64,000 nt of DNA. It comes from Octopus sinensis. Lineage: Eukaryota. Both the position numbers and the translations under genes were made by a program. The notes beneath the pieces were generated by a model. It did no database searches, was not told the origin of the DNA, and saw only the letters and a program-made list of their open reading frames with translations. Shown piece by piece: positions 31,905 through 42,901 of the stretch. Position 1 is the stretch's first letter; every line of letters starts with the position of its first letter. The DNA lies in assembly GCF_006345805.1 (NCBI RefSeq), contig NC_043011.1, positions 50,356,464 to 50,420,463 of the forward strand. Reading direction: 5' to 3'.

Positions 31905-32112
31905 AACGGGAAGGTTTACGAAAATAAACAAAAGACGAAGGCATGTGGAGTACAAACAAACAAATGTATTAGTATGGCGCTCAGGAATAGAAATAGAACA
32001 AGTCTTTTACGTTTCGAGCCTACGCTCTTCGACAGAAAGATACACAGAAAAAAACAAGGAGAGAAACAAGGAGAGAAAAAATGCGTGTAGGAGCTAACGA
32101 TCTAACATGGCG
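31905..32112 (-). mobile_element. PLE-like terminal element (family A) in a TA tract
   Basis: Homologous to 42785-42965, 57150-57300, 57755-57905 and to plus-strand pieces 56898-56972, 57502-57572. Confidence 0.7.
32004..32039 (-). ncRNA. Minimal hammerhead-like motif, CUGUCGA core, zero-loop helix III
   Basis: Minus strand: cttt CTGTCGA a gagc-gtag-gctc GAAAC GTA aaag. Confidence 0.6.
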
Positions 32113-33190
32113 TTATGTGTGTGTATATATATATATATTATATATATATACACGTCATCTGATTGAGACCACCCGTACATTTAGCTCTCTGGGATTCATC
32201 TCTAAAGCACAGCTGCTATAACTTTAGAATCACACATTATTTGAAATGTGCAGTAGATGATTTTGAGTGTGTCCGATCTTATTTATTCGTTTTTTTTTTG
32301 TGTTTTTTTTCGAGAAGCCACCCTTTGGGACTAATACATTGACATTCGAGAAAGAAATACTCATATGCGTTAGCCTAAAATGGTAACTCCTGTTTTTCTC
32401 GTGTTATTTATGTAGTTACCTTACCAATTCAGGTGCAGCTGCAACGAACAAAGGGTTTATTTTGTCTTAGCAATTGCAGCGGTTTAATGTTTCACTTTCA
32501 ACTTTGCACTTCTAATATGCATCCGACATACACATATGATGCATTAATAAAGCGTCCCCACTTTCTGTCTGCAGTTCGTAAGGATCTACTCTTTTCGCCC
32601 CCAGTTCCTCTCCTCTTAATTACTCAAAGTTTTCTCCGACAAAATCCGCTAAGATTCCACGATCTCTGTCAAGCTTTCTAGCTCTTACTCGCTCATTCAC
32701 ACATTCACTATACCTTTTTACTCTATCATGTTACCGCTCTAATTCCTCTCCTTTATTTTGTCTCTCTGCCTTTGGGGTTTTTTTTCCTCTACTGTTTCAT
32801 TTACGCTGTCTCTTCCTTCTTGTAACTTACGTTCATGGTCTCCACAATTTTGCTGCTTCTGCAATGAGTATCAAACTTGCCGATTGATTATAGCCTCATT
32901 CTCTTTCTCTCTCTCTCTCTCTTTCTCTCCCTTTCTTTCTCTCCCTTTCTTTCTCTCTCATCCTTTCAGTATTAGTCCTTATGTGTCTAATGCACTTCTC
33001 ATTATAATATATTTCCCTTTTACTGCCAACTTTCTCGGTACAAACACTGTTTTCCTCTCTAGAACTTTCTCGTGCAGCGGACAGAAACGAAAACATGCAA
33101 TGAAAGGGACACATAATTTGGTCCCATCTATATATGTATATATATATGACTGTGTATATATATGTATATATATATATGTGTGTGTGTATA

Positions 33191-33241
<51 letters not shown>

Positions 33242-33324
33242 TATATATATATACAGTGCTACAACTTTTACAACTACAAGCAGTAGTAACAGTAGAATCA
33301 TCAGCTGTAGTAGTAGTAGTAGTA

Positions 33325-33356
<32 letters not shown>

Positions 33357-33777
33357 TAGTTCTATTTTGCTTCCCTTGTACTCTGCCTCTTCCACCACTT
33401 CATCACTCTCCTTCCCCTTCTGTCTCATCATCATCAACATAACGATCGTCATCATCATCACCCTCATCATTATTATGCTCTTAACCAACAGAAGTATCGT
33501 AGCCGTTGTCGTCATTGTTATCGTCGTTATCGTCATCGTTATCATCATCGTCGTCGCCTTCATTTTGTTGTCATCCTTGTCACTTATCGACATCACTTTT
33601 AATGGCCAAGAGCCAAAACAAATGTAAATTCTATTATATACAAATAGACACGTAAATATATTTACTACACACTAATACACACACAAACATACATATATTT
33701 CTCACTAACTTGCTTGCTTCCATTTTTTTTTGTCTCTTCTTGCCATTCTCTTTATTTATACAATATATGTATATATG

Positions 33778-33816
<39 letters not shown>

Positions 33817-33996
33817 TGTGCGTATGCGAGTGTGTGTGAGCGTGTGTGTGTGTTCGGACGTGCATGCATTACCTATATACATATATACATTATATATACT
33901 GATAAATGTAAACATATATGCATATAAATGTATGTATGTATGTATGTAAGCATAAACATAGACACACACATACATAGATATACACACAAGTACGAA

Positions 33997-34035
<39 letters not shown>

Positions 34036-34312
34036 TATATATTATATATATATATATATTATATATATTATATATATATATTATTATATATATATAATGT
34101 ATATGTATATACAACAAACAAACATATATACATGCATATATACATGCATACATGCATGCGTGCATACATGTAAATAAACACACTCAAGAAACACATACAT
34201 GCGCTGATATGCCCCTTGACCTAGCGTATGAGAGACAATCATGGCCGAAGAATTCATAGTAATGCACAGTATTGCGGAGTCAAAGAATCACAGAGTTTAT
34301 TACATCGCTTCA

Positions 34313-34380
34313 CTGACGAGATGTGATTCTGCTGAACGGAAGCAGCTCTATCGAAACTTGACCGGCATATTGGTCAAGGA
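34313..34380 (+). ncRNA. Possible degenerate hammerhead
   Basis: CTGACGA gat..ctgct/agcag..atc GAAA cttgacc/ggtcaag; triplet is GGA and helix I is poor. Confidence 0.3.
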
Positions 34381-34957
34381 TATTACATTCCGTTTACAGC
34401 GAAGCAAAGGTCTGCTTAATACGCCTGCAATGTCAAGCTAAAGAAGATCGTCTGCATTTGAAAATCTCTTGCGTTTTAATAATCATTTATATCCGAACGA
34501 ACGAAGCCGTATAAGAAAACATAGATGCTTGCAAATGCATAGGAACTAATGGTGGAAATTCATAATTGAATGAAAGAACAAAATGCAAAGAAAGTAACAG
34601 ATGAACACATGTCAATATAATTAGAAAACAGGTTTAGAAATAAAGACGGGGTAAGAGTAGAGTGATGAAGGGGAGAAGGATTAGATGACATCTAGTAATA
34701 GACTAATATCAAGAAAATAACGATTTTTCACCTTCGGCACAGAGATACAGAGACACGGAGTGCTTGAAGAAAGGAAGGGTCAATTAAACCTACCTTTATA
34801 GTTGAATGTTTCTTATTTTATTAACCCTAGAAAGATGAAAGGTTATGCCGTACTGAGTAAAAAGATCCATTTGTTACCTGCAGCTGTAGTTACTTGCTGC
34901 ACTTAGGAGATCAAAAGCAGACGATATCGTTTATTTTGTCAATTTACCTTTGCAGGT

Positions 34958-35430
34958 TTGTGGAAGCACATGGCTTAATGGTTAGAGCAGCGGACTCGCG
35001 GTCGAGGGATAGCGGGTTCGAATCTCAGACCGGGCGATGTGTTTGTGTTTATGAGCGAAACACCTAAGCTCCACGCGGTTCCGACAGTAGGTAATGGCGA
35101 ACTTCTGCTGACTCTTTCGCCACAACGTTCTGTCACTCTTTCCTCCTAAATCTTGCGGCTCACCTGCGACGGACCGGCGTCTCGTCCAGGTGGGGAACCT
35201 ATACGCCAAGGAAACCGGGAAACCGGCCCTTATAAGCCAGACATGGCTCGAGAATAAAATGTGTATATATGCACGCGCGCGCGTGTATGTACTGCATGTG
35301 AGTGAAGGATTCGATTTGTACATGTCGGGATAGATCAACGGCGACCCGTCCAGGTGGGGAACCTATACGCCAAGGAAACCGGGAAAGCGGCCCTTATGAG
35401 CCAGACGTGGATCGAGAAGGAACAAACAAA
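34958..35430 (+). mobile_element. tRNA-headed SINE (family S2) with duplicated 3' part; another copy at 41275-41590
   Basis: tggcttaatggttagagc...ggttcgaatctc; gtccaggtggggaacctatacgccaagg occurs twice. Confidence 0.85.
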
Positions 35431-40220: not shown

Positions 40221-40305
<85 letters not shown>

Positions 40306-40451
40306 CATCATTATTATTATAATCATTATTATTAAGGCGGCGAAGATTCAGAGTCATTAGCACGCCGGATGAATTGGTAAGTGGCATTTCTTCTGATTTT
40401 ACATTTCAATTCCACCAAGGATGACCTTGCCTTTCATCCTTCAAGATAAAT

Positions 40452-40484
<33 letters not shown>

Positions 40485-40485
40485 T

Positions 40486-40578
<93 letters not shown>

Positions 40579-41590
40579 CAGATAGATAGATTCAGGATAT
40601 CAATTTAACATACATATATGAAATTATTCACACTTTTTCTACATGAAACTCTAACAACACTCTATTTTAATTACTAATTAATAATGCACGTAGCCAGTGA
40701 ATGAACTAGTATGCAAATGCGTAAAACTGGCGCCCGCTACTTCTTACATATGACATATACTGTAAGGCGCCTTCTTTCTTGTAGGAACGATAACACATAT
40801 CTATATATGAGGGAAAGTCATTTTCTTATTGTGCCTTATAATTTAATACATTCACCGGGGAAATATCCACTTACTTCTTATTTTTATTTTCCTAAAACTT
40901 TCGTTGCGTCTTGCAACATTTTCAATAGTCCTCACTCTCTGTCCACTGCGTTCATTTTTTTTTGTTTGTGTGCGCATCCATACATGCAAACACATAGAAC
41001 ATATATATTTGTCTACACACACACACACACACACACACCACATATATATATATAGATATATTATATATATATATATATATATAATGATAAATCTCAGAGC
41101 GAGTTATAACCAGTAGCGGTAACACATCGTGACGTATATTTGCCATTTGAATATGGCTAACCCCTAAGGGTGGATGCTGCTGTAGTTTGCAGCCCCAGGA
41201 AGACAGAGACAGTGTGTGTGACAGAAAGTGTGTCTATAGCCAGCTGAAATGTATATGAAATGTATATGAAATATATATGAGACGCAATGGCCCAGTGGTT
41301 TGGGCAGCGGACTCGCGGTCGCAGGATCGCTGTATCGATTCCCAAACCGGGCGTTTTGTGTGTTTATTGAACGAAAACACCTAAAAGCTCCACGAGACTC
41401 CGGCAGGGGGTGGTGGCGACCCCTGTTGTACTCTTTCGCCAAAACTTTCTCTCATTCTCTCTCTTCCTGTTTTTCTGAGTAACACTGTGATGGACTTGAG
41501 TTCCGCCAGCTGGGGGAACACATACGCCACAGAAACCGGGAAACGGGCCTATGAGGCTGGCTAGGCTTGAAAAGGGCGACGTTTATCGTT

Positions 41591-41632
<42 letters not shown>

Positions 41633-41817
41633 TAAGTGCATACCTACATTTATATATACAATTTATATGTGATTTAAATATAATACGGTATACAACGTTA
41701 TACATATGTGTGTGTGAATTGCCTACGTGTGCATGTCACAAAATTCCCCGAAACTAGAATACCTTAATTAAATGTTATCGTCATACACAGACAACCAATG
41801 AATACACAGACACACAT

Positions 41818-41917
41818 NNNNNNNNNNNNNNNNNNNNNNNNNNNNNNNNNNNNNNNNNNNNNNNNNNNNNNNNNNNNNNNNNNNNNNNNNNNNNNNNNNN
41901 NNNNNNNNNNNNNNNNN
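41818..41917. other. Assembly gap (100 N)
   Basis: Direct. Confidence 1.
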
Positions 41918-42543
41918 CATCTACTCCGTATTTCATACACACACACACACACACATACACACACACACACATACACACACACACACTACACACACACACA
42001 CACACACACCATATATATATATATATATATCTATATCTATATATATATATATATACTTATATATTTATAAACATATACATATCTATTTATATTTATGTAT
42101 ACATACACATACACACACGCACATCATATACTCACTTATCTTCACTCACTTTATGTGTGTATGTGTATACATGTATAATTAAAGCTAATAAATATACTAT
42201 ATATATATATTATATTATATATATATATATAAATGAATACTTGTTGATATGCATATATGTATTCCATACATGTATGAATGTATGTATTTATGATTTATGT
42301 ATGGGTACGCATGTTTGAATGACTATGCCATAGCTTTGAGGAACCCTTTTTTTTCTGATTCTCCGATATACATGGATCTATACGGATTGTGATCCTATAC
42401 ATGCCGACAAGCATTAAAATACAACACTACATGGATTTTTTCCTCGTCCTGTTTTCTTTGTTATTTATTTACATATGCATGTTCGCACACTCACACGCAC
42501 AGTGGAACTTATGAACAACTCATGCAAATATATATACATTATA

Positions 42544-42581
<38 letters not shown>

Positions 42582-42865
42582 TATATATATATACTATTAA
42601 TATATATACATATACATTATATATATATATTATATATATACGCATAGATATTATATATATGTAAGTATATATATACACATATAAATGTATGTATATATAT
42701 ACGTATGTATATCTATGTAGAGAAGTCGTGGGTGATGAGAGGAGACAGTATCAACTGGTACGACCACGTGAGCGTGTATTATGTGGGGAGAATTCACAAA
42801 AAAAAAGACAGGTGGTGTAGAAAACAAACAGATGTATTAGTATAACGCTCGGGAATTGAAAAAGT

Positions 42866-42901
42866 CTTTAACGTTTCGAGCCTATGCTCTTCCACAGAAA
42901 A
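42866..42901 (-). ncRNA. Minimal hammerhead-like motif, CUGUGGA core, zero-loop helix III (family A element 42785-42965)
   Basis: Minus strand: tttt CTGTGGA a gagc-atag-gctc GAAAC GTT aaag. Confidence 0.6.

Follow-up and report, generated by a model that had tools for sequence, protein, structure and literature searches.

The motifs and the repeat that carries them

We analysed a 64-kb stretch of the Octopus sinensis genome (contig NC_043011.1, positions 50,356,464 to 50,420,463; hereafter the window, with coordinates counted from its first base) in which a short repeat carries motifs resembling the smallest hammerhead ribozymes, with U in place of A at core position 6 (U6). The window is AT-rich and dense in microsatellites, contains remnants of short and long interspersed elements (SINE and LINE) and of Tc1-like elements, and has no long host open reading frame (ORF). 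Two 36-base motifs are intact. Both are on the minus strand, at the positions where a first-pass annotation had placed two copies sharing U6; the plus strand was rejected as the functional strand at these sites because it carries no motif. Each motif is embedded in a repeat of about 200 to 240 bases flanked by microsatellites.

31868..32112 (ends approximate), minus strand: repeat body of copy 1, with a U-rich 5′ part, the motif and a 3′ tail of about 110 bases
32004..32039, minus strand: minimal hammerhead motif of copy 1, core CUGUCGA
32032, 32031, 32030 and 32015, minus strand: U6, N7, G8 and G12 of copy 1
42780..42968 (ends approximate), minus strand: repeat body of copy 2, its 5′ end abutting a (CA)n/(TG)n tract
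42866..42901, minus strand: minimal hammerhead motif of copy 2, core CUGUGGA

Helices I and II can form in both motifs, with 4–5 bp and 4 bp, respectively; helix I of copy 1 is extendable to 32003/32040, which gives the fifth pair. Helix II is GAGC/GCUC with a loop of GUAG or AUAG, a single unpaired A stands between it and A9, and GAAA follows it. Helix III is a palindromic ACGU without a loop, the AC/GU arrangement that had already been described in the first pass. Compared with the consensus box C3 U4 G5 A6 N7 G8 A9, the motifs depart at position 6 alone, whereas G12 A13 A14, the A15.1-U16.1 pair and H17 (A in copy 1, U in copy 2) all agree with the hammerhead consensus. The loop-less palindromic 15.2-16.2, the base between 9 and 10.1 and the G10.1-C11.1 pair are features of the minimal hammerheads of Penelope-like elements. 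Cleavage is predicted between 32008 and 32007 in copy 1 and between 42870 and 42869 in copy 2. The two motifs differ at 4 of 36 positions. Three of these (N7, loop II and position 17) had been named beforehand as tolerant sites, and the fourth is the outer base of helix I, which forms C-G in one copy and U.G in the other.

By sequence, both stretches are minimal type I hammerhead motifs only if position 6 is freed. A strict CUGANGA descriptor had no match in the window, and freeing position 6 produced exactly two, copies 1 and 2. With positions 4 and 6 both free there were three matches, the additional one at 56242-56268, while none was found in any of 100 block-wise dinucleotide shuffles. At the gathering score, Rfam returned no match in the window, as is expected for minimal motifs, and no hammerhead family was among its 12 matches at E ≤ 10 in 31900-32150. 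The earlier expectation that searches built on CUGANGA overlook this core was thus correct.

The two copies had been described as independent, which is accurate insofar as they are separate insertions; they lie 10.9 kb apart with no sign that they partner each other. Nevertheless they belong to one repeat: over 184 bases their identity is 80.4%, and it reaches 89% within the motif as against 82% and 74% for the flanks. The shared U6 was therefore inherited once rather than acquired by convergence, and the two copies alone are unable to tell a family trait from decay. Beyond these, the window contains three further relatives that bear a motif and two tails that do not, all missed in the first pass, so that there are five motif copies in all (two intact, two decayed and one of a sister type).

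57246..57281, minus strand: decayed family copy with damaged core and GAAA; repeat body about 57175-57304
57849..57884, minus strand: second decayed family copy, inside a tandem duplication
56238..56272, plus strand: sister-subfamily motif with A6 kept, C at position 4 (CCGACGA) and a 3-base loop II
56898..56987, plus strand: 3′ tail lacking the motif, inserted into (TA)n and sharing 93% identity with the tail of copy 1
57502..57587, plus strand: duplicate of the motif-less tail

Both decayed copies are held in a 94% tandem duplication (56715-57374 / 57322-57982), and the second is therefore not an independent insertion. This duplication contains many small indels and may be real or an artefact of long-read assembly. 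The sister motif is compensated in helix I, with G-C where copy 1 has C-G, and retains part of the family 3′ tail. The copy 1 repeat is bounded by a (TA)n/(TG)n microsatellite and the end of its 3′ tail is locally duplicated; in 31854-31918 this end occurs some three times over, separated by (TA)n, a pattern resembling slippage of the template at insertion. Near copy 2, at a distance of about 950 bases, there is an assembly gap (a run of 100 N at about 41822-41921). The window's solo copies are probably no more than inert remnants of insertion. A retrozyme of the non-LTR type (LTR, long terminal repeat), which would be a tandem array of short units, was considered and rejected since the copies are solo and the sole duplication holds decayed motifs.

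Position 6 across the repeat family

A family-wide conservation profile, which had been suggested as a check on the U6 core, was drawn from the contigs of four public sequencing runs (three organism labels, four studies). Contigs were aligned to 31925-32104 at 80% likeness and letters were listed from 3%. The numbers aligned were 15724 for run X1, 10792 for X3, 6657 for X8 and 3590 for X11; X1 may derive from the window's own source, and X11, which may be RNA, served for sequence comparison and not as evidence of expression. Depth here is the word depth summed over contigs; it does not measure copy number, and it misses rare variants.

Position 6 showed no alternative letter at or above 3% in any of the four runs. 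The same was found for C3, U4, G5, G8, A9, the unpaired A that follows it (A9a), all helix II pairs, A13, A14, 15.1, 16.1 and 17, indicating that the U17 of copy 2 is a minority state in the family. G12 carried a CpG-type change at 1.6–3.8%. N7, directly beside U6, was C, U, A and G in about 33, 29, 26 and 13% of the depth of X1, and was other than C in 64–80% of the depth across all four runs; it is the sole site of the 180 with three alternative letters. Loop II was the second most variable motif site in X1, X3 and X8 (9.8% in X1). U6 is an inherited, family-wide state and not the product of two chance decays.

The changes at CpG sites in X1 provide further information. Where one partner is structural they were one-sided: at C7-G8, with C7 to U at 29% and G8 to A below 3%, and likewise at the loop CpG, with G to A at 9.8% and helix C10.4 to U below 3%. 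In helix III, by contrast, both strands of the CpG had decayed evenly (7.4% and 7.3%). We infer that the one-sided changes represent variation among source elements and that the even change in helix III represents decay after insertion.

Depth in X1 ranged from 7.2 to 9.7 million across 32003-32032 and was 6.0 million across 32033-38; in the 3′ flank (31967-31996) it was 3.2–3.5 million and in the 5′ flank (32045-32062) 2.2–2.9 million, which gives a peak over the motif of about threefold. Loose contig ends clustered at the motif edges, that is, at both edges of helix I (110 and 349 contigs at 32038/32039; 309 at 32000). No site at which many molecules start or stop was listed, contigs being unable to show RNA ends. 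The depth peak and the loose ends suggest that subfamilies with unlike flanks share the motif. The repeat is thus high in copy (15724 contigs in one run), mostly solo and grouped into subfamilies with divergent flanks. Taken together, the hammerhead core looks maintained rather than passively decayed.

Known minimal hammerheads and the link to Penelope-like elements

The 36-base size, the loop-less palindromic helix III and the obligate-dimer model are not new; all were published for the minimal hammerheads of Cervera and De la Peña (2014; PMC4209133). As reported there, these have the same type I topology, the same helix III, a base after A9, G10.1-C11.1, a short helix I, a U-rich 5′ side and mostly solo dispersed copies, and in an Acropora Neptune example helices II and III are nearly those of the U6 family. 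They sit in the pseudo-LTRs of metazoan Penelope-like elements, whereas for the U6 family an origin from such elements is a likely reading. Position 6 is A in 56 of the 56 representatives of their Fig. S3, as opposed to U here, although this is partly by design since the descriptor had fixed core boxes; the core variant reported in that paper is U3-A8. The dimer model is repeated in a review, PMC6765202, which cites small hammerhead variants in Penelope-like retrotransposons from Lünse, Weinberg and Breaker (RNA Biol) that, as cited, resemble the present motifs in a very short stem III and in cleaving as dimers.

Search listings of the literature contained no A6U or U6 hammerhead core, the 2017 variant set of Lünse et al. 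lying outside their coverage; that set may include position-6 variants and is the main risk to the novelty of U6. For octopus or other cephalopod hammerheads, the literature found consisted of an Rfam count in giant squid. A natural change at position 6 is described for the hammerhead of phage Bcep176 (PMC3088659, PMC7151607), which has A6C, residual activity and a preference for Mn2+. It differs in having C rather than U and in being a single phage locus with a full helix III, where the U6 family is an animal repeat of high copy number whose motif is minimal. The Poseidon PAc hammerhead of the green anole (PMC11167929) also lies in a pseudo-LTR, and its genomic copies, too, continue beyond the cut site as far as a tail with a defined end. 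However, it cleaves in vitro and has the ORF start inside the motif, and the U6 family has no conserved start codon. Non-LTR retrozymes (PMC7229834; bioRxiv 10.64898/2026.07.22.740005) are similar as short non-coding hammerhead repeats related to Penelope-like pseudo-LTRs, but they are described as tandem arrays with canonical type I motifs, unlike the solo, minimal copies of the window.

Metagenomes were scanned with the same helix II and III letters and positions 3–7 free, giving at least 120 loci. Among the 120 listed, none shares flanks with copy 1 or 2, and 35 with a GC content of at least 50% were dropped as likely chance matches. Position 6 in the remaining 85 listed loci was A in 78, G in 5, C in 2 and U in none; in the 48 of these with a helix I of at least 3 bp it was A in 47 and C in one. 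The C4 core of the window's sister motif (CCGACGA) occurs in 22 of these 48 and in none of the 56 published representatives of PMC4209133. Scans of viral contigs by motif pattern and of bacterial and archaeal genomes for the U6 pattern gave no match.

One metagenome locus, L068, has an A6 motif with the same helix II and III letters 681 bases downstream of the end of an ORF for which the closest clusters in the atlas consist of GIY-YIG proteins (score 0.96). The GIY-YIG label comes from this atlas result alone; the ORF ends of L008, L055 and L009 are similar by eye only. In Pfam none of three metagenome ORF ends was matched, and the best PDB match had E = 0.65. These loci tie the motif architecture, not the U6 family of the window, to Penelope-like elements. 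By analogy, the U6 repeat is likely the 5′-truncated pseudo-LTR end of such a retroelement.

Several other features of the window were recorded. A near-perfect palindrome at 58521-58880, centred near 58700, contains two divergent hammerhead-like motifs (58636-58663, minus strand; 58740-58767, plus strand) with a CUGAAGA core, hence A6, and a palindromic helix III insert; they fail the strict descriptor because helix II is closed by a U.U mismatch. This palindrome adjoins 58862-59549, which is itself 77% like 54914-55649, and probably represents two pseudo-LTRs, inverted with respect to each other, from a different Penelope-like family. Possibly decayed hammerheads are seen on the plus strand at 20753-20795 (CUGAUGA, a long perfect-looking hairpin and GAAAC, with no UH cut triplet; perhaps of another family) and at 34313-34357 (CUGACGA and GAAAC around a weak, long helix II). 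A palindromic element of about 155 bases lies between (TA)n tracts at 58143-58297, and a 184-base SINE-like repeat with many dispersed copies elsewhere in the window occurs four times head-to-tail at 35913-36648 (91% matches). Remnants of LINE reverse transcriptase or Tc1-like transposase are at 12305-12670, 21990-22766, 25212-25868, 49940-50329 and 52119-52490; among them, only 12305-12670 and 52119-52490 have Pfam matches, and 25212-25868 has an atlas lead.

A possible role for the U6 motif

We propose with moderate confidence that the motifs are minimal type I U6 hammerheads in a very abundant repeat of about 200 bases, probably the truncated pseudo-LTR end considered above, and that they would cut slowly and only when paired. 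Two motifs, on one tandem transcript or on two transcripts, would pair their palindromic ACGU sequences into a shared 4-bp helix III, creating two cores that could each cut after A17. G8 and G12, described as the catalytic nucleotides of the hammerhead, are intact in the U6 family. A6 is described as stacked on G5 at the distal side of the U4 turn; with U6, both the U4-G5-A6 turn and its stacking would be weaker, and the rate would be lower. The change seems to date back to a single event in an ancestor, from which many subfamilies received it; their source elements would have kept the core while the flanks diverged. In the A6C hammerhead one or two hydrogen bonds are expected to be missing, and its cleavage is slow, at reported rates of 0.004–0.05 per min in 1–3 mM Mg2+ and about 0.3 in Mn2+. 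In a full mutational scan, all mutants of the CUGA region except a C3-G8 swap were reported as low in activity. In light of these two results, the U6 motif may plausibly cleave slowly, and a complete lack of cleavage has to be taken seriously as an alternative.

A number of observations weigh against this proposal. On a per-site basis the core is not significantly better kept than its flanks, since variants at or above 10% occur at 1 of 36 motif sites and 10 of 91 flank sites (Fisher p = 0.18), even though the variation pattern itself speaks against a core kept no better than its surroundings. Most flank sites also lack a variant, so the invariance of position 6 indicates inheritance, not a preference for U. 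Because the reference carries U6, the alignment favours sequences resembling it; part of the conservation of the central block is built in, and the A6/C4 sister motif at 56238 escaped the contig alignment. Of the four motif copies of the U6 family in the window, two have decayed, both stemming from one insertion that was duplicated, and tblastn with the metagenome ORFs found no Penelope ORF remnant in the window. Neither in copy 1 (−14.7 versus −22.4 kcal/mol) nor in copy 2 (−3.9 versus −16.0 kcal/mol) does the predicted minimum coincide with the double-hammerhead fold, and an A6 control shows a similar gap. The published minimal hammerheads are reported to cleave at a low level as dimers and trimers and not at all as monomers (PMC4209133), and cleavage was dispensable for in vitro insertion of the anole element (PMC11167929).

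The last point lends weight to a different possibility, that a hammerhead-shaped RNA is under selection but silenced by U6, its fold serving RNA dimerisation or recognition by reverse transcriptase. We regard this as less likely than slow cleavage but deserving serious attention. The low activity of the CUGA-region mutants agrees with it, as does the report that hammerhead mutants of the anole element had no effect on insertion and that no RNA-seq reads ended at its cut site. Furthermore, the octopus copies retain about 110 bases past the predicted cut site, which suggests that their template was uncut there. On the other hand, a free N7 with fixed C3, G5, G8 and G12 and a GUA triplet is the pattern of a catalytic core and not of any hairpin, and A6C is reported to keep activity.

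It is also conceivable, though we consider it rather unlikely, that U6 is itself the selected, working form of the core. Modelling gave a predicted U6-A15.1 pairing probability of 0.42 in the copy 1 monomer and 0.76 in that of copy 2, compared with 0.00 with A6. This pair might hold a lone motif off until a partner supplies helix III, perhaps with the help of Mn2+ or a protein. If so, one of the commonest repeats of the genome would be a hidden family of switchable ribozymes, and censuses based on CUGANGA would have missed whole lineages of such elements.

That the motif is a dead relic, with one source element carrying a broken hammerhead amplified passively in trans and the motif having no present role, seems improbable. 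The non-significant per-site test, the CpG decay in helix III and the decayed and motif-less copies in the window would all be compatible with it. What speaks against it is that N7 has four states, that CpG changes are one-sided, and that depth peaks over the motif with loose ends at its edges, all suggesting many source elements whose core was kept while the flanks diverged.

We give still less credence to a mapping artefact, in which the family would be mostly A6 and such contigs would be clipped or left unaligned by the U6 reference. The counted depth of X1, 8.5 million at 32023, is indeed down to 6.0 million at N7, an A6 sister type does exist in the window without having been captured, and there are 479 loose-end rows besides those listed. 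Yet the single mismatch adjacent to U6, at N7, was tolerated at 67%, the best-supported loose ends are at 32038-39, outside the core, and both intact window copies carry U6. The fall in depth is also matched at the opposite edge of the block, where about 6.4 million would be expected at equal distance; the closeness of the 6.0 million at N7 to this value argues against a large class of clipped A6 contigs. Finally, a protein-coding constraint, in which U6 and N7 would be the fixed second and free third positions of a codon for valine close to a stop (the copy 1 frame reads SVEERRLET-stop), is hardly credible and was rejected: elsewhere in this frame the four-fold sites (U4, a loop base and 11.1) are without variation, single-base insertions occur frequently just upstream (32047, 32075), the stop is absent from copy 2, and copy 1 carries another one 20 codons upstream of the motif.

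The dimer architecture of the proposed slow-cutting U6 hammerheads is in itself ordinary and long published. What seems to be unreported is a U6 core within an apparently selected hammerhead pattern of a very abundant repeat, as A6 is treated as near-invariant and is hard-coded in genome searches. A high-copy family that has changed A6 and yet bears the signature of a hammerhead core offers a natural experiment on whether the hammerheads of Penelope-like elements are kept for cutting or for something else. If the U6 motifs cleave, the core consensus would be widened and hammerhead ribozymes would have been undercounted; if they do not cleave despite their conservation, the family would provide evidence for a non-catalytic role.

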